A DNA stretch of 35,783 bases from a virus. The notes beneath the pieces were generated by a model. That model was given only the letters and a program-made list of their open reading frames with translations. It had not been told where the DNA came from and did no database searches. The position numbers and the translations under genes are program-made. Location of the stretch: UHGV virus genome UHGV-0117379; one strand, written 5' to 3'. This document shows, piece by piece, positions 1 through 13,380 of this stretch (position 1 is its first letter; each line of letters opens with the position of its first letter).

Positions 1-49
1 ACAGTAGCAAGTATGTGTACATTTGTACATAAACCGGAAGAGGAAAATC

Positions 50-613
50 ATGGCCCGTAGACCAAACGATCCGCAGCGCCGCGAGCGCATCCTGCAGGCG
101 ACGCTGGATACCATCGCGGCGCATGGCGTCCATGCGGTAACGCACCGTAAAATCGCCACCTGCGCGAATGTGCCGCTGGGGTCACTGACCTACTATTTTA
201 GCGGCATTGAGGCGTTAATTGAGGAGGCGTTCAGCCTGTTTACTGCCGAGATGTCGGCGCACTACCAGCAAGGCTTCGTCGGGGTAACGAATCAGGAGCA
301 AGCCTGTGATGCCATTGCTGAGCTGATTTTCAGCGCCCAGGTGACCACGGCGCGTAATATGAAGCTGATGTACCAGCTGTATGCTTTTTGCAGCAGTCAG
401 CCGGCGCTGAAGGCGGTGATGCAAAACTGGATGCGGCGCAGCCAGCAGACGCTGGAGCAGTGGTTCGCCCCCGATACCGCCCGCGGTCTCGACGCCTTTA
501 TTGAAGGGATGACCTTGCACTTTGTCACCGACCGCGCGCCGCTGTCGAAGGCGGCAATCCGCATGATGGTCGGGCAGCTGGCGGGGGAGAGGGCGCAGGA
601 AGAGGGGCGCTGA
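50..613 (+). CDS. TetR-family transcriptional regulator (host flank, RcdA/YbjK-like)
   Basis: ORF 23..613; N-terminal HTH ([27 protein letters not shown]) typical of TetR family; GGAAGAGGA RBS 6 nt before ATG at 50 favours this start over ATG at 23; GC-rich host-like composition. Confidence 0.7.
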
Positions 614-680: not shown

Positions 681-714
681 AAAACAATAAGTTAGATTAA
701 AAACAATAAGTTAG
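681..714. repeat. Tandem direct repeat AAAACAATAAGTTAG x2 (period 19 bp) next to integrase 3' end
   Basis: Exact 15-mer at 681..695 and 700..714, read directly in sequence. Confidence 0.8.
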
Positions 715-735
715 GTTGGTGGTCAGTGGTGGTTA

Positions 736-1788
736 TTACGGGGTAATGCCAACCGCTGCCGCCACTTTGTCGCCACTTGGCAGCGTTGCCAGAGGATTGA
801 AACGGAGCGCCGTTTCCAGATGATCCGGTGCCAGATGTGCGTAACGCATAGTCATTTTTATATCGTGGTGTCCGAGAATTTTTTGTAAGGCCAGAATGTT
901 TCCACCCGACATCATGAAGTGCGCCGCAAACGTATGGCGCAGAACGTGTGTGAGTTGACCGCGAGGGAGCACGATAGACGTTTTTTCCATCACGGATAAA
1001 AATTGAAAATAGCAGTCTGTGAAGAAATTGAACCCATCAAGCGCCATGATCTCTTCGTAAAGCTCTTTACTGATAGGGATGCTTCTGTTTTTCTTCCCCT
1101 TCGTTCTGACAAAGGTAATTCGGTATTTGGTCACCTGTGAGCGGGTAAGATTTACGGCTTCACGCCAGCGTGCGCCTGTGCTTAAGCATATCTTAACTAC
1201 CAGTGCCAGAATTGGGTCCTGACGTTTGCAATCAGCCAGCAATTCAACAATCTGCTCATGGGTAAGCCATGCCATCTCTTTTTCTGCGATGGTGAATTTT
1301 CGCATGTTCTCCAGTGGGTTCGGATACGACCATTCGCCCAGACGGGATAGTTCGCTAAAAACACTACTTAGATAGCTTTGCTCCAGGTTAATGGTGACCG
1401 GGCTTGCTCCTTTCTTCCATTTCTCGCTGAAGTAGATCTCGCCTGTCAGGCGTTTATCTCGATAGTGGGCAAACATTTTAGAGGTGAGATCGGTTGCAAG
1501 AGGATTGCCTAGAGCGTCAACCATCAGCAGCAATTTGTCATAGACATGCTGTCCAGCAGTCAGAGATTTACCATGTAGTTTGAACCATAGCTCAACCACG
1601 TCTTTCAGGGTTCGACGATCCACTGATTCGCCCAGCCAGGGCTTTGATTCGGTTTCTTCCATCGTGTGACGCTCAAAAGCCAGAGCTTCGCCTTTGGTGG
1701 CGAATTGTTTACGCACACGACGCCCACTTCGTCCGGCGGGGTAACATTCGCAAAGCCATTTCCCTGTGGTGAGTTTTCGTACTGCCAT
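736..1788 (-). CDS. int: Phage integrase, tyrosine recombinase (P2 Int family)
   Basis: ORF 736..1944 trimmed to ATG at 1786..1788 (MAVRKLTTGKW...), which aligns with the P2 Int N-terminus; C-terminal catalytic motifs HVLRHTFAAHF...GHHDIKMTMRYAHL. Confidence 0.9.
   Translation of the reverse strand: MAVRKLTTGKWLCECYPAGRSGRRVRKQFATKGEALAFERHTMEETESKPWLGESVDRRTLKDVVELWFKLHGKSLTAGQHVYDKLLLMVDALGNPLATDLTSKMFAHYRDKRLTGEIYFSEKWKKGASPVTINLEQSYLSSVFSELSRLGEWSYPNPLENMRKFTIAEKEMAWLTHEQIVELLADCKRQDPILALVVKICLSTGARWREAVNLTRSQVTKYRITFVRTKGKKNRSIPISKELYEEIMALDGFNFFTDCYFQFLSVMEKTSIVLPRGQLTHVLRHTFAAHFMMSGGNILALQKILGHHDIKMTMRYAHLAPDHLETALRFNPLATLPSGDKVAAAVGITP
756..775. other. Candidate attL core (CTGCCGCCACTTTGTCGCCA), 19/20 identical to 35736..35755
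   Basis: Direct repeat found by eye at both prophage extremities; lies inside the 3' end of int. Confidence 0.4.
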
Positions 1789-1976
1789 AAAAAATGCCCT
1801 CCAGTAGAGAGCATTTTTACTGTATGTATAACCAGTGTCAATGTATGAAATCCTACGACCATACATCTCACTGAAGCCATAATGAAGTTGGCTATTCTTT
1901 TTGCTATGTGAGCATGTAACTTTTGCGGTTAACCTGCGGCTCATTTTTATTTTAGACGCAGATATAAAAACAAAAG

Positions 1977-2168
1977 TTATCGTGAGTTTTTAGTACAGAT
2001 TTTTTTGGATTTACTAATAGTTCCATCATTGCAAACGAATTTGCCATCTGAGGTACAGTGAGAAACACCTCCCTTTTTCCCTGAGCAGGGATAATTTCTA
2101 GCATAGGTAGTTAGTGGGTTTAATAACAAAGAACATGACAAAACCACAAAAAATACCTTACCAAGCAT
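1977..2168 (-). CDS. Small secreted Cys-rich protein (63 aa, signal peptide), cargo between int and cI
   Basis: Hydrophobic N-terminus ([23 protein letters not shown]) then about 40 aa with 5 Cys; strong RBS GGGAGGA 4 nt upstream; starts 15 nt after cI stop so likely co-transcribed with cI. Confidence 0.5.
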
Positions 2169-2183
2169 AGTTTCCTCCCGGTA

Positions 2184-2753
2184 CTATTTAACATACTTGA
2201 CTGTTAAACTTATAATTTTACCAATTATTTCAATGTCTTCTATCTTGCATTCGAAGGCTCTGTTTCCACCCTCGACGAAGATTCTTCCACCGGGTAAACG
2301 AGTAATGTCACGGATCGTTATTTCGCCATCAATACTTATTACCCATTTACCATCACGTATATCATCAAATTCTTTATCACAAATAAATTCAGAATTGTTA
2401 TCTGTGATGACAAAAGGTTTTTTAAACGTAGAGGGTAGAAATCCCTTATCAAAAATATAAAAACCGTCTTTCTGCAATGCTCCATCAGACAATAAATATT
2501 TTTCTACTTCTATAGTATTTGTATTTGCTGATGCTTGCTTTGAACCATGCCCTGTTGTTAGCCAATTAAGCGAGGTGCCCGTTTCAAGGGCGCACTGGAT
2601 TACCCAATCTGCTGGAAAAATATCACGCATATAGCGCGTTGCCATGGTGCTCTTAGAAACACCTAAATGATCACAGAGAGCCTGACGAGTACCGAACCCA
2701 TATGCTTCAACTAAACGTTCTATGGCTTTCTTACCGCCGCTATTGAAATCCAC
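2184..2753 (-). CDS. cI: 186-type CI immunity repressor
   Basis: N-terminal HTH (RLVEAYGFG...CALETGTSLNWLTTGHG) and C-terminus (WVISIDGEITIRDITRLPGGRIFVEGGNRAFECKIEDIEIIGK) align with phage 186 CI as recalled; GTG at 2751..2753 preceded by GGAGGA gives 189 aa, consistent with the about 192 aa 186 CI; alternative GTG at 2840. Confidence 0.75.
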   Translation of the reverse strand: MDFNSGGKKAIERLVEAYGFGTRQALCDHLGVSKSTMATRYMRDIFPADWVIQCALETGTSLNWLTTGHGSKQASANTNTIEVEKYLLSDGALQKDGFYIFDKGFLPSTFKKPFVITDNNSEFICDKEFDDIRDGKWVISIDGEITIRDITRLPGGRIFVEGGNRAFECKIEDIEIIGKIISLTVKYVK

Positions 2754-2898
2754 AAGTCCTCCAAAGAAATCCAAAATTCGTTGACAGATTCCAAAAGCGA
2801 TCTTAAAGTTGAACCAGAAGTGTTCTTTTGGAGCCTTCACTACTAATCACGACAAACAACGGCTCGCCACAAGCCATATCTAGAAGGAATGTTGCCTT
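2754..2898. promoter_or_regulatory. Lysis-lysogeny switch region between divergently oriented cI and apl (pR/pL, operators)
   Basis: Intergenic between leftward cI and rightward apl; TTGACA at 2791..2796 with TAAAGT 17 bp downstream is a candidate pR; 186 has the same face-to-face arrangement. Confidence 0.45.
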
Positions 2899-3102
2899 AT
2901 GACACCTAACATTTCAATTACTCTGAATACACCACATGTCACAATCGAACGTTATAGCGAACTGACTGGCCTTTCTATTGATACGATTAACGACATGTTG
3001 GCTGATGGCCGACTACCTCGTCATCGTCTTCGTAAAGACAAAAAACGTGAAAAGGTAATGATTAACCTGGCTGCTCTGACTGTTGATGCTTTGTCTGCTT
3101 AA
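2899..3102 (+). CDS. apl: Apl-like excisionase/Cro-like HTH protein
   Basis: 67 aa; HTH ([28 protein letters not shown]) of the excisionase/AlpA type; first rightward gene opposite cI, as in 186. Confidence 0.65.
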
Positions 3103-3166
3103 TAGACGTCTATTTTCGCAATAAGACGCTGAGTTCGATTTTGCGATAAGTTCGGAGTTGAAAACC

Positions 3167-3676
3167 ATGTTTGATTACCAAGTTTCCAAACATCCACATT
3201 TTGATGAAGCCTGTCGTGCATTCGCACTGCGCCACAATCTGGTGCAACTGGCAGAACGTGCGGGCATGAATGTGCAGATTCTGCGGAACAAGCTGAACCC
3301 AGCTCAACCTCATTTATTAACCGCACCAGAAATCTGGCTGCTTACCGATCTGACTGAAGATTCAACGTTGGTAGATGGTTTTCTGGCACAGATTCATTGT
3401 CTGCCATGTGTACCGATTAATGAGGTAGCAAAAGAGAAACTGCCACATTACGTCATGAGTGCAACCGCAGAGATCGGGCGTGTTGCTGCAGGTGCGGTAT
3501 CTGGCGATGTAAAAACCAGTGCAGGTCGTCGTGATGCTATCAGCAGCATTAACTCTGTAACACGACTGATGGCGCTGGCGGCTGTTTCATTGCAGGCCCG
3601 TTTACAGGCTAATCCTGCGATGGCGAGTGCAGTTGATACCGTGACTGGCCTCGGTGCTTCATTCGGTTTGCTGTGA
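3167..3676 (+). CDS. cII: CII lysogeny-establishment activator (186 CII-like)
   Basis: 169 aa from ATG 3167 (GGAG 9 nt upstream); near colinear match to 186 CII (MFDFQVSKHPH...[28 protein letters not shown]...NPAM..GASFGL). Confidence 0.85.
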
Positions 3677-4967: not shown

Positions 4968-5266
4968 CAGGGGCTGTGCGTATCCATCAATTAAAAATTG
5001 CACCTAAGTATTTCAACGCTGTGGTTGCAGGTCAAAAGACGGCTGAACTTCGTAAAGACGATCGTGGCTATAAAGTTGGTGATGTTCTTTCTCTTTGCGA
5101 ATGGAAGCATGGCGTATTTACGGGTAGGGAATGGGCCGCGGTTATCTCTCATGTGCTTCCGGTTAATGACGTCATGGCAGTTTCAGAACAATGGGTGATG
5201 CTATCAATTCGCTCATTAACCCCATTAGAAGCTTTAGGATATGTTATTGCAGGAGGTGCTGTATGA
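4964..5266 (+). CDS. DUF3850/ASCH-like small protein
   Basis: ATG 4964 (GGAGG upstream; ATGA overlap with previous stop); [36 protein letters not shown] motif. Confidence 0.55.
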
Positions 5267-6120
5267 GCACCATCCTGAAATGGGCGGGTAATAAAACCAC
5301 CATTATGTCCGAACTGAAAAAATACCTTCCTGCTGGCACGCGACTGGTTGAACCTTTCGCGGGTTCTTGTGCTGTGATGATGGAGACGGATTACCCCAGC
5401 TATCTGGTTGCGGATATTAATCCTGATTTAATCAACCTCTATAAAAAGGTTGCTGCTGATTGTGAGGCGTTTATATCTCGTGCCAGAGCTTTATTTGAGG
5501 AAGCAAACAGAGAGGTGGCTTATTACAACATAAGGCAGGAGTTTAATTACTCCACTGAAATTACTGATTTCATGAAAGCGGTATATTTTCTGTATCTCAA
5601 TCGTCATGGTTACCGTGGGCTATGTCGCTATAACAAGAGCGGGTATTTCAACATTCCCTACGGTAATTATAAAAATCCGTATTTCCCTGAAAAAGAAATT
5701 CGCGCATTTGCAGAGAAAGCCCAGCGGGCAACGTTTATCTGCGCCAGCTTTGATGAAACGCTGGCGATGTTGAAGGCGGGGGATGTGGTGTATTGCGATC
5801 CGCCTTATGACGGTACGTTTTCCGGCTATCACACTGATGGCTTCACTGAAGATGACCAGTATCACCTGGCATCCGTTCTTGAACATCGATCATCTGAAGG
5901 TCATCCGGTCATTGTTTCTAACAGTGACACATCCCTGATCCGTTCGCTGTATCGCAATTTTACTCACCACTACATCAAGGCAAAACGCAGCATCGGCGTG
6001 GCAGCTGGTGAGAGTAAATCTGCAACAGAAATCATCGCTGTTTCCGGGCCGCGCTGCTGGGTAGGATTTGATCCTTCGCGTGGCGTGGATTGTTCCGTCG
6101 TGTACGGAGTGCGTGCATGA
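5263..6120 (+). CDS. dam: DNA adenine methyltransferase (Dam, N6-adenine, D12 class)
   Basis: [17 protein letters not shown] (SAM-binding) and DPPY catalytic motif; ATGA overlaps at both ends (5263..5266 and 6117..6120). Confidence 0.85.
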
Positions 6121-8531
6121 GCCATGCTGATATGAACAACTGCAGCGGCTTTAACGAGGTCGCCGCAGCATTCTCATGGAACAGCCCGAAAAAGGCCATT
6201 AACCCTTATCTGGACCCGGCGGAAGTTGCGCCGGTTTCTGCGCTTTCAAACCTGATCACTCTGTACGCTGCCGATAACGAGCAGGAACAACTGCGCCGCG
6301 AGGCACTGAGTGATCAGGTCTGGGAGCGTTATTTCTTTAATGAATCCCGTGATCCTGTCCAACGCGAAATGGAGCAGGATAAGCTAATTAGCCGGGCAAA
6401 GCTGGCGCATGAGCAGCAGCGTTTTAATCCAGACATGGCCATTCTGGCGGACGTCAACGCCCAGCCTTCCCATATCAGCAAGCCGCTGATGCAACGTATT
6501 AAATACTTCAGCAGCCTGGGCAGGCCAAAGGCTTATTCCCGCTATTTGCGTGAGACGATTAAGCCATGCCTGGAACGACTGGAGCATGTACGCGACAGTC
6601 AGCTATCCACTTCTTTTCGCTTTATGGCAAGCCATGAAGGGCTGGACGGCCTGCTGATCCTGCCTGAAATGAGTCAGGATCAGGTGAAACGCCTGTCCAC
6701 CTTGGTAGCTGCGCATATGAGCATGTGCCTTGATACAGCTTGTGGCGATTTGTATGCCACCGATGATGTTACGCCAGAAGAAATCCGCAAGACATGGGAA
6801 AAGGTGGCAGCGGAAACCCTGCGTCTGGATGTTATCCCGCCTGCGTTTGAGCAACTCCGTCGGAAAAGAAACCGCCGTAAACCCGTGCCTTATGAACTCA
6901 TTCCTGGTTCGCTGGCGCGTATGTTATGCGCCGACTGGTGGTATCGGAAATTATGGAAGATGCGTTGCGAATGGCGGGAAGAGCAGTTGCGTGCTGTTTG
7001 CCTGGTCAGCAAAAAAGCATCTCCCTATGTCAGCTATGAAGCCGTGATGCATAAACGTGAGCAGCGCCGTAAGTCGCTGGAGTTTTTCCGTTCTCATGAA
7101 CTGGTGAACGAAGACGGCGACACGCTGGATATGGAAGACGTGGTAAACGCCAGCAGCAGCAACCCTGCGCATCGCCGCAATGAGATGATGGCCTGTGTTA
7201 AAGGTCTGGAGCTTATCGCGGAAATGCGCGGTGACTGCGCCGTTTTCTACACCATCACCTGTCCGTCACGTTTCCATTCCACGCTAAATAACGGCAGGCC
7301 CAACCCGACCTGGACAAATGCGACGGTAAGACAAAGCAGTGATTATCTGGTCGGTATGTTTGCTGCATTTCGTAAGGCGATGCACAAAGCCGGATTACGC
7401 TGGTATGGCGTGCGGGTGGCTGAGCCGCATCATGACGGTACAGTTCACTGGCACCTGTTGTGTTTTATGCGCAAAAAAGATCGCCGCGCCATTACTGCTT
7501 TGTTGCGTAAGTTTGCCATTCGTGAAGACCGCGAGGAGCTGGGTAATAACACGGAACCACGCTTTAAGTCTGAGCTGATAAACCCGCGCAAAGGTACGCC
7601 AACAAGCTACATCGCGAAATACATCAGTAAGAACATTGACGGGCGTGGTCTGGCTGGCGAGATCAGCAAGGAAACGGGTAAATCCCTGCGTGATAACGCC
7701 GAATACGTTAATGCCTGGGCGTCTCTGCATCGTGTTCAGCAATTCCGCTTCTTTGGCATTCCGGGGCGTCAGGCTTACCGTGAACTGCGATTGCTGGCTG
7801 GTCAGGCGGCAAGGCAACAGGGGGACAAAAAAGCAGGTGCGCCGGTACTGGATAACCCGCGCCTTGATGCCATCCTGGCTGCCGCTGATGCTGGCTGTTT
7901 TGCCACCTACATCATGAAGCAGGGCGGCGTACTGGTTCCCCGCAAATATCACCTCATCAGAACCGCTTATGAAATCAACGAAGAGCCGACCGCCTATGGC
8001 GATCACGGTATTCGTATTTATGGCATCTGGTCACCCATTGCAGAGGGCAAGATCTGCACTCATGCGGTGAAGTGGAAAATGGTTCGTAAGGCCGTTGACA
8101 TTCAGGAGGCGGCAGCCGACCAGGGCGCTTGCGCCCCTTGGACTCGTGGCAATAACTGTCCCCTTGCTGAAAATTTGAACCAACAAGGGAAAGACAAATC
8201 AGCTGATGGGGATACCAGAACGGAGATCACCCGCATGGATGACAAGGAGTTGCACGATTACCTGCACAGTATGAGCAAAAAAGAGCGCCGGGAACTGGCA
8301 GCAAGGTTACGCCTGGTGAAACCGAAATGGCGTAAAGACTACAAACAGCGAATTACAGAGCATCAGCGTCAGCAGCTCGTCTATGAACTGAAGTCCAGAG
8401 GATTTGATGGCAGCGAGAAAGAGGTCGATCTGCTCCTTCGCGGTGGCAGTATTCCGTCAGGAGCAGGCCTGCGTATCTTCTATCGGAACCAGCGTTTGCA
8501 GGAAGATGATAAGTGGCGGAACCTGTATTAA
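6117..8531 (+). CDS. A: Replication initiation protein A (P2 gpA family rolling-circle nickase)
   Basis: 804 aa; HWHLLCF and YIAKYISK (paired active-site Tyr) motifs typical of P2 gpA; position after the early operon. Confidence 0.9.
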
Positions 8532-9403: not shown

Positions 9404-9622
9404 ATGTCAAGTATCGCCGCATTGAAGCTGGGTAATCCAGTTGAACGTTTGGCACGGGTTCTGAAAGAGAACCAGGACAAGCTCAATCTGAGTAAAGATG
9501 GTTTTGTGTCCGTAGATTTGTCCAACGAAGAAGCTATGAAAGCCATCCGAGATCAGATGGATAAGCTTGAAGGCATCAAAACGAGCACTGTTAAAGCAAA
9601 ATATTATTACAGAACCCGATAA
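9404..9622 (+). CDS. Hypothetical 72-aa protein (first gene of accessory module)
   Basis: Strong RBS AAGGAGGGG; stop overlaps next start (TAATG). Confidence 0.55.
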   Translation: MSSIAALKLGNPVERLARVLKENQDKLNLSKDGFVSVDLSNEEAMKAIRDQMDKLEGIKTSTVKAKYYYRTR

Positions 9623-10464
9623 TGGCAACATTACTTTTAGCAGTGATTTTGGTTAGTGGTTTTATATATGTAAACCTATCACTTTCAACACGTTATAGAT
9701 ATAAGCGTTCCAATGGCTGGGACGCTTATTTTTTTGTGGCTGCATGGGGAATTGTCTTTTTCCTCGCTGGCGGCTTCCTTACCTTCGCTCTTAACATCAG
9801 CGGTGGGTTTCGCTGGTTTTCTAATGCGCTGAATCTGACTCCAGACAGCTTTAACGGGATGTTATCCACCACAACCGATAAACCGCAGCGCATCAATGAA
9901 ATTAAGCAAATCGCGTGGGTTGTGATTTCAATAGTTCTCGCGGCGCTGTTCGGTTGGCTAAACAAACGCCGTACTTCAAAAGGGGATCGCCGTTGGGATG
10001 CACTGGCAAAGGCAGTGGGAAACAATGCTTTTGAATCGCTGCTCATGGAAGCATCAGCTCGCCAGTTTCCTATCATTGCTACACTTTCATCACGCAAAAT
10101 CTATGTAGGGCTGGTGACTTGCCCTGCGTTGGAAAATGGATTGTCGGAACACCTTGAAATTCTCCCCTTGCTGAGCGGATATCGTGATAAAGACGACCTA
10201 ACGATAAATATCACGACAAACTATCATCAGCACTATCTTGATAGCGGTGTTATCAATGGGATGTCGCGCCTGAATATCCAGGATTTCCGTGTGCTTCTCC
10301 CTAAAGATGAAGTTGAAACCATCTCGTTTTTTGATACTGAAACGTATAACAAATTTAAAGAAAACGAAGCGCGTGACCGGAAAGACTGCCGCAAGTTGGG
10401 TGGTAAAAAGCCATCCGCACGCAGGAGAAAGACTGCTGGCGACGCAGAGCAGGGTAGTGCATGA
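9622..10464 (+). CDS. Membrane protein, 280 aa (3-4 N-terminal TM helices plus about 160 aa soluble domain)
   Basis: Hydrophobic stretches LLLAVILVSGFIYV, YFFVAAWGIVFFLAGGFLTFAL, IAWVVISIVLAALFGWL; translationally coupled to the 72-aa ORF. Confidence 0.6.
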   Translation: MATLLLAVILVSGFIYVNLSLSTRYRYKRSNGWDAYFFVAAWGIVFFLAGGFLTFALNISGGFRWFSNALNLTPDSFNGMLSTTTDKPQRINEIKQIAWVVISIVLAALFGWLNKRRTSKGDRRWDALAKAVGNNAFESLLMEASARQFPIIATLSSRKIYVGLVTCPALENGLSEHLEILPLLSGYRDKDDLTINITTNYHQHYLDSGVINGMSRLNIQDFRVLLPKDEVETISFFDTETYNKFKENEARDRKDCRKLGGKKPSARRRKTAGDAEQGSA

Positions 10465-10510
10465 CTATGCTGCATGAATTTGCATGATCGTTTGAGGATC
10501 GTTTTAGCTC

Positions 10511-10538
10511 CGGCCCGCCAGTTCAGGCGGGCTTTTTC
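10511..10538 (+). terminator. Rho-independent terminator after the membrane-protein gene
   Basis: GCCCGCC-AGTTCA-GGCGGGC stem-loop followed by TTTTT. Confidence 0.7.
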
Positions 10539-10584
10539 ATATCTCATGCAGGTGCATGAAAACCACTACACAAAGCGGGCAGGC

Positions 10585-10610
10585 GTGGCGGGGATACGAG
10601 CGCGCGCTCA
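10585..10610. other. Candidate cos site (GGCGTGGCGGGGA...)
   Basis: GGCGTGGCGGGGA at 10591..10603 matches the first 13 nt of the 186/P2 cohesive-end sequence as I recall it; lies between A-side genes and Q as expected. Confidence 0.3.
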
Positions 10611-10665
10611 TTACTTTTATAATTCTAGGGTTATAATACAGGGCTATCTTTCTAGGAGAAAACAC

Positions 10666-12318
10666 ATGTCCTTAGAGTTTATCAAAGAACAGTTGTCAGA
10701 TTTTATCTCATCTACAGAACCAGAAGTAATGGCTATACAGGGTGAATGGGGAATTGGTAAAACCTATACTTGGAATACGTTCCTAAAAGATAATAAAGAT
10801 AAGGTTGCATTTAATAGATATAGTTATGTCTCTCTTTTTGGTATAAATTCACTAGATTCTTTAAAGTATTCTATTTTTGAGAATGCAATTACAAAGGAAT
10901 ATATTGGAAATAAACCTGATTTGGAGACAGCAACAACAAACGCAAGTGGACTTTTTGAATCGTTTTCTCGAAAAGCCGCAGGTTTGTTAAAAGAAGCTCC
11001 TGTTGTAAAAAACTTCTCTACGACACTTGAAGCAATGTCATTTCTGACCGTTTCTAAAATGATTGTAGTAATAGATGACTTAGAAAGGCGTGGCAAAAAC
11101 TTAGATGTTAAAGATGTTTTAGGGCTAGTATCTCTATTAAAGGAGCAGAAGGATTGTAAGGTGGTTCTATTGCTTAACAATGGCACAGCTAGTATGGAGG
11201 ATTATTCTACTTATAAAGAAAAGGTCATTGATAGAGATATCACTTACAATCCAACACCAGAAGAATGCGCAGATATAGCCTATAAAGGTGATTTTCATGT
11301 TTATAACTTGTTAAGTAAATATTCCATTTCTTTAGGTATCAAGAATATTCGAATCTTAAAAAAGATAGAACGTTTTTTCGTGTCCTTAACACCAAATATT
11401 ATAGGTGATGTTGAGACAATTTCAAATGAAGTTGCGCATTCATTAACTCTGTATTGTTGGAGCCATTACGGATTTTCTCCAGAGGGAGATGTGCCATCAC
11501 TAGAATATATTAGGGGAGTGAGGAATATATATACTTATAATGACAAGGAAGAAGGCCATGAGAAAGTCTGGCTTAATACCTTGCTTAAATATGGATATAG
11601 AAAAACGAATGATCTTGATGAGGTTCTTATTGATATGGTTAGATATGGCTATCTTGATAAGAGCAGTTTCCAAAGACAAATAAGCCTAAGGAATGAGGAG
11701 ATTACGCGTGATAATAAACGAGGTTCCTTATCTGAGGCATGGCAGTTCTTTCATAATTCATTTGATGACAATCAAAATCAGGTTGTTGACAAGCTATATC
11801 AAGCGGTGGTTGATGGGATGAAGTATGTGACTCCAAGTGATTTAGATAATGTTGTCGGACTATATAGGGATTTCGGAGAGAATGCTAAGGCGAGTGAATT
11901 GATTGAACAGTTTATTAATTATGGTAACGATGCTCTAAAGGAATATGTTCAATCTATTTATGTGAATGTTCATCCCGTAAGAGATGCTGAGTTGTTGTCA
12001 AAAATTCAAGCCTATTCTAATATTATAAATATTGATGGTTCAATATATGATGTTCTTAAGAAATTATCAGGTCAGAATGGTTGGTCTGATAGACATGAGG
12101 AAATATTGGATGCTGCTTCAGTAGATGACTACTATCAATTATTTAAAAATGTCATTCTTGATGGTGGTGATTCAATAATAGCTACGGCGCTTAAATTCGG
12201 AAATTATAGTAATGGTTCTGATAGAATGAATCGTATAGGGAAAAAGGCAAGGGATGCCTTGATAAGAATTGGAGATGAATCGGCGATTAATAAAATACGT
12301 GTAAGGCGATTTTTGTGA
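10666..12318 (+). CDS. KAP-family P-loop NTPase (550 aa), AT-rich accessory gene
   Basis: Walker A IQGEWGIGKTYTWN (G-x-W-G-x-GKT KAP signature), Walker B MIVVIDDLER; ATG 10666 with AGGAG RBS and TATAAT elements upstream; much lower GC than phage core; flanked by terminators. Confidence 0.8.
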   Translation: MSLEFIKEQLSDFISSTEPEVMAIQGEWGIGKTYTWNTFLKDNKDKVAFNRYSYVSLFGINSLDSLKYSIFENAITKEYIGNKPDLETATTNASGLFESFSRKAAGLLKEAPVVKNFSTTLEAMSFLTVSKMIVVIDDLERRGKNLDVKDVLGLVSLLKEQKDCKVVLLLNNGTASMEDYSTYKEKVIDRDITYNPTPEECADIAYKGDFHVYNLLSKYSISLGIKNIRILKKIERFFVSLTPNIIGDVETISNEVAHSLTLYCWSHYGFSPEGDVPSLEYIRGVRNIYTYNDKEEGHEKVWLNTLLKYGYRKTNDLDEVLIDMVRYGYLDKSSFQRQISLRNEEITRDNKRGSLSEAWQFFHNSFDDNQNQVVDKLYQAVVDGMKYVTPSDLDNVVGLYRDFGENAKASELIEQFINYGNDALKEYVQSIYVNVHPVRDAELLSKIQAYSNIINIDGSIYDVLKKLSGQNGWSDRHEEILDAASVDDYYQLFKNVILDGGDSIIATALKFGNYSNGSDRMNRIGKKARDALIRIGDESAINKIRVRRFL

Positions 12319-12348: not shown

Positions 12349-13380
12349 CTAATTTAATGAGTAATCATTAAATGCTATGATTTTTTCATTTAGCCAAGTA
12401 TTAATTTCTATAAGCCTTTTTTGTAACGGAATTAATTCATTTCGGACAAAGACTTTACTAGCCTTTTCCACATCCCCAAACCCCCCAACATTATTCGGCA
12501 TTATCCCCATCATTTGCGGCGGCACGCGGTGTGCCGCCATCATGTCGTCCCGGCTCACGTTCTTAATATTCAAAAACTCATCCTTCGCTGCGACCTCTGA
12601 CAACGGGATAATCTGAAGCCCGTCCTTTTTGCCGTTAGGCGAGTACATAAACAGGTTGCGGAAGTTGCCCGGACCTTTGGCGCTTTTCATCGCATTGCGG
12701 AGGTTGTTCACATCTTCCTGGTTCTGCGCGGCATCGGTCATGTACATGATGAAGCCTGCATGACTGCCGTTAATGTAATACTTCCGGCGGAACAGCGTGG
12801 CGGACTCGTTGAGCAGGGCTGACGGAATGGCAGAAAGATAACCTGGCAGGCCGTAGATCTCCTGGTTGATGTCCGGTTCCATCAGATGAAAAATGCTGCC
12901 TTTCGTGAACTGATACTGCTGGGTTGTAATACCATATTGCACAAACCAGTAGGTATCCAGGTCTAATCCGCGTCGGGTGTATTTTGCCAGCGCAGGTTCA
13001 AGGGCGATAACTTCACCGAAGCGGTTCGTGCGTTTCTCCAGGTAGGCGTTACCAAATACCAGATAGTCCTGCACAAAACGTGAAAAAGCCTGCTGGCTGA
13101 GCAGCGGGTGAGGGATATAGGTGCTGGTCAGAATATTGCACTTTACTGCAATCGGTGAGCTGTGATGCACGGCGGCGCGGAAGGCTCGCGCCAGTCCGTC
13201 AAAACTCACTGGCGGCTCATACCAGCGATCTGTCTGTACGCATTCCACATAGTCCAGTCGTTCGCGGCGATCCAGTACTGGAATGGGATCGCCGAAGCTG
13301 AATGCTTCGGCTGAAGTCTGGCTTTTATGCTGGGTCTGGTTCTGCGACGCAGCGCGGTTCTTCTTACTCTTTCCCATCAA
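12349..13380 (-). CDS. Q: Portal protein (P2 gpQ)
   Basis: 343 aa; FSFGDPIPV...YVEC...WYEPPVSFD...aligns with the P2 Q N-terminus; adjacent to terminase. Confidence 0.9.
   Translation of the reverse strand: MMGKSKKNRAASQNQTQHKSQTSAEAFSFGDPIPVLDRRERLDYVECVQTDRWYEPPVSFDGLARAFRAAVHHSSPIAVKCNILTSTYIPHPLLSQQAFSRFVQDYLVFGNAYLEKRTNRFGEVIALEPALAKYTRRGLDLDTYWFVQYGITTQQYQFTKGSIFHLMEPDINQEIYGLPGYLSAIPSALLNESATLFRRKYYINGSHAGFIMYMTDAAQNQEDVNNLRNAMKSAKGPGNFRNLFMYSPNGKKDGLQIIPLSEVAAKDEFLNIKNVSRDDMMAAHRVPPQMMGIMPNNVGGFGDVEKASKVFVRNELIPLQKRLIEINTWLNEKIIAFNDYSLN

Follow-up and report, generated by a model that had tools for sequence, protein, structure and literature searches.

The 63-aa open reading frame (ORF) between the cI repressor and integrase genes of the virus genome UHGV-0117379 belongs to the uncharacterised YdcA family, of which it is a phage-borne representative, and is not an orphan sequence. 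The window (the whole stretch of DNA that was analysed, 35,783 nt) is a P2/186-like prophage. In Escherichia coli the ORF is linked approximately 1:1 to one type of cI, and it behaves as part of the immunity cassette. The sequence itself is not novel, and its product already carries the PGAP name 'YdcA family protein'. The ORF is cI-linked cargo of the lysogenic operon, with a product predicted to be exported. It is plausible that this product is a lysogen-expressed factor acting in the envelope or in DNA entry.

Gene order and signals behind cI

The features of the region are itemized below in window coordinates.

736–1788, minus strand: integrase gene (int), 350 aa, Pfam Int_N and Phage_integrase, ATG at 1788 (MAVRKL...)
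1790–1818, minus strand: 13-bp RNA hairpin AAAAAUGCUCUCU-ACU-GGAGGGCAUUUUU flanked by A and U tracts, abutting the int ATG
1917–1979, minus strand: long RNA hairpin starting at the ORF stop codon, without a U-run on the minus strand
1977–2168, minus strand: YdcA-family gene, 63 aa, from the ORF list (stop codon 1977–1979, ATG 2166–2168)
1980–2099, minus strand: mature domain, 40 aa with four conserved Cys, from alignments, dN/dS and model
2100–2168, minus strand: predicted Sec signal peptide, residues 1–23, with a probable cut after T-Y-A23, from family conservation
2173–2179, minus strand: Shine–Dalgarno sequence GGGAGGA, read from the sequence, kept in the BL21 copy
2184–2753, minus strand: cI repressor gene of the 186 type, 189 aa, Pfam Phage_CI_repr and Phage_CI_C
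2899–3102, plus strand: Apl/Cox-like excisionase and repressor (phrog_575, E = 1e-29), first gene of the divergent lytic operon
3158–3676, plus strand: CII-like activator (Pfam Phage_CP76, E = 3e-42)

The stop codon of cI (TAG, 2184–2186) is separated from the ORF by a spacer of exactly 15 nt (2169–2183), which reads TACCGGGAGGAAACT on the minus strand. The earlier note on this DNA had placed a 63-aa ORF 15 nt after cI with a very strong ribosome binding site and no intervening terminator, and all three points hold. The Shine–Dalgarno sequence lies within the spacer, and the ribosome binding site is strong because its GGAGG core is 5 nt ahead of the ATG. A scan between cI and the ORF found no terminator-like site. 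No promoter was found on the minus strand in the 3′ end of cI, and the 15-nt gap leaves no room for one, so the ORF has no promoter of its own there. The GC content of the ORF is that of the adjacent 3′ half of cI (31–38%). The true start of cI is probably the GTG at 2753, after GGAGGA, judging from the sequence and the length of 186 CI, and the frame is open to 2840.

The position of the ORF and its ribosome binding site are consistent with its being expressed together with cI on the lysogenic transcript. In 186 the CII protein drives the establishment promoter pE, which reads through cI (186 annotation). Located 15 nt past cI and preceded by a strong Shine–Dalgarno sequence, the ORF would therefore be the second gene of a lysogenic (pL/pE-type) operon, and as such it would be made whenever CI is made, i.e. 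in every lysogen.

The ORF is absent from both P2 and 186, where int directly follows the repressor gene as the earlier note had stated; in 186 the overlap of cI with int is 1 nt, and in P2 a distance of 115 nt separates C from int. The note had also set the ORF between cI and int. This is correct, but int is not immediately next, as its ATG at 1788 is 188 nt past the ORF stop codon. The RNA of this interval (1990–1770) folds with z = −5.4. The long hairpin at 1917–1979 is terminator-like only on the plus strand (at 1923–1939 in the scan). The shorter hairpin at 1790–1818 looks like a terminator or attenuator from its sequence, and the int Shine–Dalgarno sequence GGAGGG (1797–1802) is inside its 3′ arm. 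Phages 813R9, KP12 and 4LV2017 have an int that is 97% identical to this one in nucleotide sequence, with the homology ending near 1848; the shorter hairpin is within an int-linked segment that is conserved up to ~1848. At the same place before int, 813R9 carries a T-run and a hairpin whose sequence differs.

A YdcA-family protein with a predicted signal peptide

The ORF protein matches the NCBIfam model NF007463 (YdcA family, PRK10040.1-2) with 115.8 bits against a curated cutoff of 93 (E = 5.3e-34, profile positions 1–58 of 58), and phrog_6000 with E = 1.9e-34 (positions 1–56 of 56). Precomputed matches to the Pfam family PF27300.1 exist for P0001, which represents the cluster that includes the exact ORF sequence, and for nearly all homologues. 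Our own Pfam scan used a model set that did not contain PF27300 and returned only PF22906 (E = 0.075), which is noise; a weak NCBIfam match to the lpg1681 family (E = 0.11) was likewise taken as noise. The family comprises 445 cluster representatives, and the exact ORF sequence is present on >1000 contigs. Plasmids seldom match: there are 57 hits among 72,556 records, mostly from Acinetobacter and Rhizobium.

One of the closest known members is YdcA of E. coli K-12 (b1419; NF007462/NF007463/NF007464, PRK10040; PF27300), which likewise has a Sec signal peptide and a four-Cys core of ~35 aa. The core common to the two proteins starts with PCSG(K/S)KGG(V/I) and ends with (T/S)IS.SKK.C. The phage protein belongs to the subfamily model NF007463 and not NF007462, and its signal peptide is unrelated in sequence to that of K-12 YdcA. 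The genes also differ in their surroundings: K-12 ydcA is located in the chromosomal cybB-rydC-ydcA-hokB neighbourhood, whereas the phage ORF is in a prophage lysogenic operon behind cI. The name 'ydcA' in the gonococcal genetic island refers to one half of a toxin–antitoxin pair, ydhB/ydcA (PMC5127880), with no sign of homology.

Export, cleavage and disulfide formation of the ORF protein are inferred from its sequence. The predicted signal peptide opens with the charged stretch MLGK, continues with a hydrophobic core from V5 to L16 (mean Kyte–Doolittle value 2.86) and N17-P18, and closes with T21-Y22-A23. A23 is invariant in an alignment of 29 sequences and at least 90% conserved in one of 46. 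Apart from A23 the N-terminus is not conserved in sequence (its dN/dS is ~1 between genera), yet throughout the family it is always hydrophobic and ends in Ala. The charged start, the hydrophobic core and the near-invariant A23 support the cleavable signal peptide claimed earlier, and the structure prediction that the note had suggested (AlphaFold2) gives a helix at residues 3–15, in keeping with it.

The mature domain would be 4.3 kDa in size and lysine-rich, with a pI of 9.7 and a net charge of +7. In the model it has a pLDDT of 80–92 and contains a small beta hairpin. The earlier note had counted five Cys in a mature part of ~40 aa. The length is right, and the whole protein has five Cys, but the mature domain has four because Cys12, which is not conserved, lies in the signal peptide. 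The four are C28, C38, C46 and C58, spaced C-x9-C-x7-C-x11-C, and the spacing C-x9-C-x6/7-C-x11-C occurs in 84 of 84 homologues. The core has a net charge between +2 and +7 in all 84, and in the alignments it hardly varies between alpha-, beta- and gammaproteobacteria. Purifying selection on the mature domain is strong (dN/dS 0.02–0.04); compared with the BL21 copy there are nine synonymous changes and one non-synonymous change.

The only relative in the PDB is Dis2 (Lpg0823; 7MUD), a protein of the type IV secretion system (Dot/Icm) of Legionella that is periplasmic, adjoins the outer membrane and has lobes pinned by disulfides (PMC8486379). Both lobes are matched by phmmer (E = 3e-5), and each carries the motif CS.K.GG(I/V)..C...G..VCN(D/N)G..S. 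Dis2 is also the top Foldseek match of the ORF model. The profile search gives E = 3.2e-4. The sequence similarity to Dis2 is modest and takes in the signal-peptide region. Unlike Dis2, the ORF has no association with type IV secretion, being located in a P2/186-like prophage. The UniRef name 'Conjugal transfer protein' finds no support in the context, as no type IV secretion families recur in the neighbour survey. Elsewhere the YdcA domain is found at the N-terminus of secreted nucleases of the Endonuclease_NS, SNase and PLD types, which have three unrelated folds.

Linkage to the repressor and the cI–int slot

The cI type and the ORF region each occur at 641 places in complete E. coli genomes, in 638 and 631 of the 5,426 genomes respectively. 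The ORF region is thus present in ~11.6% of them (about one in nine), including the laboratory strains BL21 and HS. Of 30 genomes that were sampled, all 30 have an annotated CDS at the match. None of the E. coli phage records in the phage collection that was searched has the gene.

The order of repressor followed by YdcA is seen in E. coli, Yersinia, phages of Pasteurellaceae and Oceanisphaera (where the repressor is of the S24 type). In the neighbour survey the commonest upstream neighbour is Phage_CI_repr (9 of 75), with HTH_3 in a further five. The Haemophilus phages HP2 and S2 (Peduoviridae) have an ORF of the same family directly after a 186-type cI and before int; the HP2 copy is at 2486–2668 of NC_003315, on the minus strand. 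Its ATG overlaps the cI stop codon (TAATG), whereas the ORF in the window follows a 15-nt gap with a Shine–Dalgarno sequence, and the next gene in HP2, orf1(S), encodes an exported OB-fold (tRNA_anti-like) protein. The gene is unannotated in both HP2 and S2 as well as in several phages of Acinetobacter and Moraxella, an annotation gap that affects reference phage genomes.

In phages whose int is 97% identical, the slot holds a 349-aa uncharacterised protein, PD-Lambda-1, or a YdcA-like gene together with a KAP NTPase. Because phages with the same integrase carry other cargo there, the ORF can be regarded as lysogenic-operon cargo. A search of PADLOC-DB 2.0 matched the ORF to none of its families; in the same run, slot neighbours of related phages matched PD-Lambda-1 and PDC-S20. 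A minor defence hotspot between integrase and primase has been described in P2-like phages (PMC13586616, which covers roughly 8,000 P2-like prophages).

The term moron, used in the earlier note, suits the ORF in part. It is an extra gene absent from P2 and 186, and its slot is filled otherwise in phages that have the same int. Its insertion is not independent, and a moron in the strict sense it is not, because it lacks its own promoter, has the GC content of the 3′ half of cI and is linked ~1:1 to cI.

Possible roles and comparison with known systems

We tentatively propose, with a likelihood a little short of even, that the ORF encodes an exported, polyanion-binding YdcA mini-protein of the lysogenic operon that confers an exclusion trait at the level of the envelope. 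The precursor would be exported by means of its Sec signal peptide and cleaved after Ala23, and the mature peptide would be oxidised in the periplasm to form two disulfides. The basic mini-domain may then bind a polyanion, for which the most specific guess would be incoming DNA, with LPS or outer-membrane and peptidoglycan surfaces as alternatives. The lysogen would thereby gain an envelope-level trait, for example a block to the entry of superinfecting or other foreign DNA. That the domain is a periplasmic polyanion- or DNA-binding module acting as an exclusion factor is suggested with low confidence from the nuclease fusions, the charge and analogy; the fusion to nucleases could equally mean tethering to a surface or envelope. 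Phage tails usually shield DNA on its way through the periplasm, and phage DNA may therefore be out of reach of a soluble DNA binder. The literature searched contained no report of a transcript, protein or phenotype for the prophage gene, and a search for locus-tag-based expression of the BL21/REL606 copy found none.

A more far-reaching form of this proposal, which we consider unlikely, treats the YdcA domain as a two-disulfide, constantly positive mini-fold that binds DNA in the periplasm or outside the cell. It would be the targeting module of secreted nucleases of three folds and would form the lobes of Dis2, while the free prophage form, expressed with the repressor, would intercept foreign DNA from superinfecting phage or natural transformation. 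Natural transformation can delete prophages, and such interception would fit the phage-borne copies in the naturally competent Haemophilus, Moraxella and Acinetobacter.

The phage copy might instead be a host-fitness factor that acts as chromosomal YdcA does, in periplasmic acid or organic-acid stress and envelope stress, with no effect on other phages. The whole core is common to the phage and K-12 proteins. Deletion of ydcA makes E. coli W sensitive to 3-hydroxypropionate at 300 mM, and acid induction of ydcA under YdcI has been reported (PMC7642389). The phenotype comes from a single study and is without a mechanism, and these data on chromosomal YdcA do not concern the phage (PMC7642389). 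A stress role also leaves unexplained both the recurrent place behind phage repressors, in a slot that otherwise holds defence genes, and the nuclease fusions. We consider it unlikely.

Rather more doubtful is receptor masking or the blocking of an envelope machine, in which the mini-domain would dock on a complex of the outer membrane, be it a secretin, a pilus, a type IV secretion system or a porin, the way Dis2 docks on the Dot/Icm outer-membrane cap, and, like Cor, Llp and Tip, would stop phage adsorption, phage injection or conjugation. The only solved relative is indeed a type IV secretion system subunit beside the outer membrane (PMC8486379), and exclusion proteins of the lysogeny module are well known from Glo, Ltp and Sie2009 (PMC3952083). 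However, a core that is almost identical from Rhizobium to Haemophilus is a poor fit with a species-specific protein receptor, the ORF protein has neither lipobox nor membrane anchor, and Dis2 is itself dispensable (PMC12716638).

The earlier note had raised an antimicrobial peptide among its suggestions, and the small, cationic mature peptide, presumably stabilised by disulfides, does resemble defensins. A secreted antimicrobial or bacteriocin that kills competitors is nevertheless very improbable, and the suggestion finds no support: a Sec signal alone brings a protein only as far as the periplasm; the ORF list and the neighbour survey contain no export, immunity or lysis partner beside the ORF; constitutive expression in the lysogen would expose the producer itself; and no immunity gene accompanies single-copy chromosomal homologues, for example K-12 ydcA.

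Still less probable is a short lipidated, anchored peptide like Cor or Llp, with Cys12 in V-L-S-C as its lipobox. VLSC loosely resembles [LVI][ASTVI][GAS]C, but this reading is rejected because Cys12 is not conserved. Where present in homologues it follows F, I or V (LLFC, LLIC, ILVC), and these are not lipoboxes; the leader would be only 11 residues long, hydrophobic residues go on past Cys12, and Ala23 shows little or no variation in the alignments. A chance ORF in AT-rich spacer DNA, in keeping with its shortness, the AT-rich region and a 50-aa ORF that overlaps it in another frame, is scarcely conceivable and is already refuted by the profile match (E ~1e-34, past the curated cutoff), the dN/dS of 0.02–0.04, the 445 cluster representatives and the CDS in 30/30 sampled genomes.

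The phage gene is present in ~11.6% of complete E. coli genomes, under very strong purifying selection and always paired with one repressor type. A function for it would also give a function to K-12 ydcA and offer a lead for Dis2 of Legionella Dot/Icm, which is currently without known structural relatives. If the proposed DNA binding or entry block is true, the 4.3-kDa domain would be among the smallest prophage-encoded exclusion factors, and one that is easily synthesised. The cI–int slot of P2/186-like phages would then be an exchange site for defences at the envelope level and in the cytoplasm (PD-Lambda-1, KAP NTPases).

For the proposed polyanion-binding exclusion factor a precedent of mechanism is provided by HxsA, the effector of the HXS antiphage system. 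HxsA is processed and periplasmic, and the proposal is that it engages incoming phage DNA electrostatically and halts its entry (PMC13128918). HxsA differs in its radical-SAM maturation, its peptidoglycan-binding domain and its HxS repeats, and is not homologous to the ORF protein. In its location the ORF is like the exclusion genes of lysogeny modules (Glo, Ltp and Sie2009), as it lies between the repressor and integrase genes and has the same orientation as the repressor. Ltp of TP-J34 and Sie2009 of Tuc2009 are small exported proteins, expressed from the prophage, that prevent the injection of DNA (PMC3952083); they have a lipid or membrane anchor, belong to the Gram-positive envelope and are unrelated to the ORF in sequence. 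Glo of the Vibrio phage K139 is not a homologue (BLASTP E = 0.16, 7/30 identities) and is not a four-Cys mini-domain. It is a soluble periplasmic protein of 137 aa, annotated in GenBank for phage exclusion, whose gene has cI on one side and int on the other within the lysogenic operon, and its exclusion has been shown in K139, a P2-family phage, according to secondary citations (PMC3952083, PMC4870250). By analogy of position and probable compartment, Glo is the best functional analogue of the ORF protein.

Gene order at the left end of the prophage

The window carries a P2/186-like (Peduoviridae) prophage adjoining a TetR-family host gene (window 23–613), annotated as rcdA where this region matches other E. 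coli genomes. The left end of the window carries a block of three genes on the minus strand, faced by two genes on the plus strand:

736–1944, minus: open frame of int, with the true start at ATG 1788 (MAVRKL...)
1977–2168, minus: the ORF, 63 aa, between int and cI
2184–2840, minus: cI of the 186 type (Pfam Phage_CI_repr and Phage_CI_C)
2899–3102, plus: apl/cox-like gene
3158–3676, plus: cII

The stop codon of cI (TAG) is at 2184–2186 and the ATG of the ORF at 2166–2168, so the gap is exactly 15 nt, reading TACCGGGAGGAAACT on the coding strand. The GGAGG core of the Shine–Dalgarno sequence lies 5 nt upstream of the ATG. The terminator scan found no terminator-like site between cI and the ORF, and the promoter scan found no minus-strand promoter in the 3′ end of cI. 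The earlier note's placement of the ORF 15 nt after cI, with a strong ribosome-binding site and no intervening terminator, is thus borne out, on the minus strand. Its order of cI, ORF and int is also correct, but int is not directly adjacent, being separated by a structured spacer of 188 nt. The cI gene probably starts at GTG 2753, preceded by GGAGGA; the resulting 189 aa approximates the 192 aa of 186 CI, and the mechanically called frame (218 aa from GTG 2840) probably over-extends. A pR-like promoter (TTGACA, 17 nt, TAAAGT) is located at 2781–2809 on the plus strand, within the over-extended part.

The fold of a 221 nt RNA covering the ORF–int spacer has z = −5.4. A long hairpin (1917–1979, minus strand) starts at the stop codon of the ORF and lacks a U-run on the coding strand. 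The consensus scan scored 1923–1939 as terminator-like on the plus strand, and the hairpin could therefore stop antisense transcription. A second hairpin, of 13 bp (1790–1818, minus strand), is immediately 5′ of the int ATG. It has an A-tract upstream and a U-tract downstream, sequesters the int Shine–Dalgarno sequence (GGAGGG), and looks like an intrinsic terminator or attenuator separating the cI cargo from int. Pairing of the U-run with the A-run hid it from the consensus scan. A sigma-70-like site (TTGACA, 17 nt, AAAAAT; 1841–1813) overlaps this hairpin. At the same spot phage vB_EcoM-813R9 has a hairpin of other sequence (AGCCCTC-TGATAT-GAGGGCT, then TTTTT).

Elsewhere in the window, two cargo genes (9622–12318, plus strand) lie between the replication gene (6090–8531) and the portal gene (12349–13380), in the classic P2 gpA–gpQ defence hotspot. 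The first encodes 280 aa without a family match, and the second a 614-aa KAP-type P-loop NTPase matching the PADLOC candidate system PDC-S49. The early region (5191–6120, plus strand) encodes a Dam-like, D12-class N6-adenine DNA methyltransferase (Pfam E = 3e-76).

A conserved member of the YdcA family

The ORF matches NCBIfam NF007463 (PRK10040.1-2) with 115.8 bits (E = 5e-34; curated cutoff 93) and phrog_6000 over the whole profile (E = 2e-34), and the precomputed Pfam domain of its cluster representative is PF27300. The exact protein sequence is present on more than 1000 contigs, and PGAP labels it 'YdcA family protein' in many RefSeq E. coli genomes; both sequence and family are thus already in databases. 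The whole core is shared with E. coli K-12 YdcA (b1419, 57 aa; K-12 sequence verified), which is described as a small protein that has a signal sequence, a predicted periplasmic location and no known function (bioRxiv 10.1101/2024.02.12.579971). Searched exhaustively with HMMER, 1.84 billion cluster representatives yielded 445 family members at E ≤1e-3.

Conservation was judged from alignments of 29 and 46 homologues together with 84 genomic copies. The first ∼20–25 residues vary in sequence, are always hydrophobic and end with an alanine that is invariant in the smaller alignment and nearly so in the larger. The core that follows is almost invariant, ending (T/S)ISKSKK.C. All 84 copies have the cysteine spacing C-x9-C-x6/7-C-x11-C, with a core net charge of +2 to +7. 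The mature part differs from the BL21 copy by nine synonymous changes and one non-synonymous change (dN/dS 0.02), and dN/dS is 0.04 against strain TUM13773; by this measure the mature domain is under strong selection. Signal peptides compared between genera are drifting (dN/dS ∼1). The family match, the selection and the 445 members exclude a chance ORF. The ORF is thus a genuine gene, belonging to a known, uncharacterised family, and its identity and placement are almost certain.

Linkage to the repressor

Among 5,426 complete E. coli genomes this cI type occurs at 641 places (638 genomes) and the ORF region also at 641 (631 genomes); the equal place counts suggest a linkage of about 1:1. The ORF region always has at least 90% nucleotide identity, whereas most cI copies have only 80–90%. 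The ORF and the 3′ half of cI share a GC content of 31–38%, and int has 47–52%. The gene is present in BL21 and HS. In 186, cI and int overlap by 1 nt, and in P2 the C–int distance is 115 nt, so that relative to both phages the ORF is extra. To that extent the moron proposed earlier survives; the linkage and the GC content shared with cI show that the gene is no free-standing insertion.

Prophages of ∼11.6% of the complete E. coli genomes contain the gene. None of the 50,697 records in the phage collection is an E. coli or enterobacterial-host phage carrying it; it may be rare for prophages of this immunity type to be recovered as free phage. The int–YdcA–cI region (window 700–3200) is found with 99.4% identity in E. 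coli NZ_CP148585.1 (55.6 kb) and NZ_CP148400.1 (55.2 kb), deposited as plasmids; excision, an episomal state or faulty assembly could each explain this.

Phages 813R9, Klebsiella KP12 and 4LV2017 have an int 97% identical to that of the window, with homology ending at about 1848, ∼60 nt upstream of int. Among those examined, the cI–int slot holds an unknown 349-aa protein in 4LV2017 and a DUF4041 + T5orf172 protein matching the defence system PD-Lambda-1 in 813R9. E. coli TUM13773 has the order cI, YdcA-like gene, KAP NTPase (PDC-S20), int. Since phages with the same int type carry other genes there, the slot is a cargo site.

The placement of a YdcA gene behind the repressor is conserved. Scanning a single genome for each species gave 80 loci in alpha-, beta- and gammaproteobacteria, 20 of them in recognizable P2-like prophage context. 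Upstream, the most frequent neighbour is a phage CI repressor (Phage_CI_repr 9/75, HTH_3 5/75); downstream it is an integrase (5/76). Three Yersinia loci (L009, L010, L030) have the order cI–YdcA–int, and in two from Pasteurellaceae (L080, L082) the gene directly follows cI, with int ∼1 kb further downstream. Haemophilus phage HP2 has a translationally coupled version, an unannotated 60-aa family gene (2486–2668) whose ATG overlaps the cI stop (TAATG), followed by an exported tRNA_anti-like (OB-type) domain protein and then int; in phage S2 the match, again unannotated, falls at these same coordinates. The repressor is of another class (HTH_3 + Peptidase_S24) in a P2-like prophage of Oceanisphaera, where the gene follows it in an operon. 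The surroundings of the family member in Moraxella Mcat17 and Acinetobacter phage Ab11510-phi are hypothetical genes, with a tail gene or another large gene downstream.

The literature searched yielded no description of the tight pairing with 186-type repressors (Enterobacteriaceae, Yersinia, Pasteurellaceae), the missed gene in HP2 and S2, the recurrent YdcA–nuclease fusions, or the relationship of YdcA to the Legionella Dot/Icm subunit Dis2. Prophage cargo genes of unknown function are unsurprising in themselves, and the mechanism of this one is what we infer; a phage-borne, cI-linked YdcA gene is common, conserved and easy to test.

Expression, export and a possible envelope function

According to their annotations, the pL transcripts of 186 and K139 run through cI into downstream genes, as does pE in 186. 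Because these read past cI, by analogy the ORF should be expressed whenever CI is. We infer from the sequence Sec export, cleavage by signal peptidase I after T-Y-A23, and two disulfides. The mature peptide would have 40 aa (4.3 kDa, pI 9.7, net charge +7) with C28, C38, C46 and C58. The earlier note assigned five cysteines to the mature part; the protein has five, but Cys12, which is not conserved, belongs to the signal peptide. The only solved relative is Dis2 (Lpg0823) of the Legionella Dot/Icm system, which matches in both lobes (phmmer E = 3e-5; profile E = 3e-4) and is the top Foldseek match (37% identity over 38 columns, but E = 0.55). Its two similar lobes are held by five disulfides next to the outer membrane; it had no structural homologue at publication (PMC8486379) and is dispensable for assembly of the Dot/Icm system (PMC12716638).

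In longer family members the domain comes right after the signal peptide, with one of three unrelated nuclease folds on its C-terminal side, or is repeated (P handles are cluster representatives):

YdcA + Endonuclease_NS: P0174, P0195 and locus L037 (5989–6936, Methylococcales MAG)
YdcA + staphylococcal-nuclease-like (SNase): P0126
YdcA + PLD-type: P0199
Tandem YdcA repeats: P0079, P0082, P0083, P0086

Some other members add a basic region resembling PBCV_basic_adap. The nuclease fusions and the invariably positive core point to a polyanion-binding module, with DNA as the most specific candidate. On this reading the lysogen would make a mini-protein that, by binding DNA or some other polyanion of the envelope in the periplasm, would confer an exclusion-type trait. 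We put this mechanism forward tentatively, as somewhat less than an even chance.

A role in stress tolerance, as reported for the chromosomal gene, is unlikely: deletion of ydcA makes E. coli W sensitive to 3-hydroxypropionate, and the gene is reportedly acid-induced under YdcI (PMC7642389). Slightly less likely is docking on an outer-membrane machine in the manner of Dis2. An antimicrobial peptide, for all the small size and basic pI, is very improbable, and a lipoprotein formed via Cys12 marginally more so.

For polyanion binding with exclusion there is a precedent in the recently described HXS system of E. coli, for whose processed periplasmic effector an electrostatic block of phage DNA entry has been proposed (PMC13128918). 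In K139 (L091, 1781–3099) a BRCT-domain orf2 precedes glo. At Oceanisphaera locus L022 (5459–6180) the YdcA-like gene follows a 169-aa protein with a 'DNA ligase' PHROG match and weak similarity to K139 orf2 (E = 0.003); as an orf2-like protein precedes each, this gene may occupy the position of glo. The protein of the ORF has no sequence similarity to Glo, a soluble periplasmic exclusion protein (PMC3952083) encoded in the related phage K139 in the same cI–int slot as the ORF is here.
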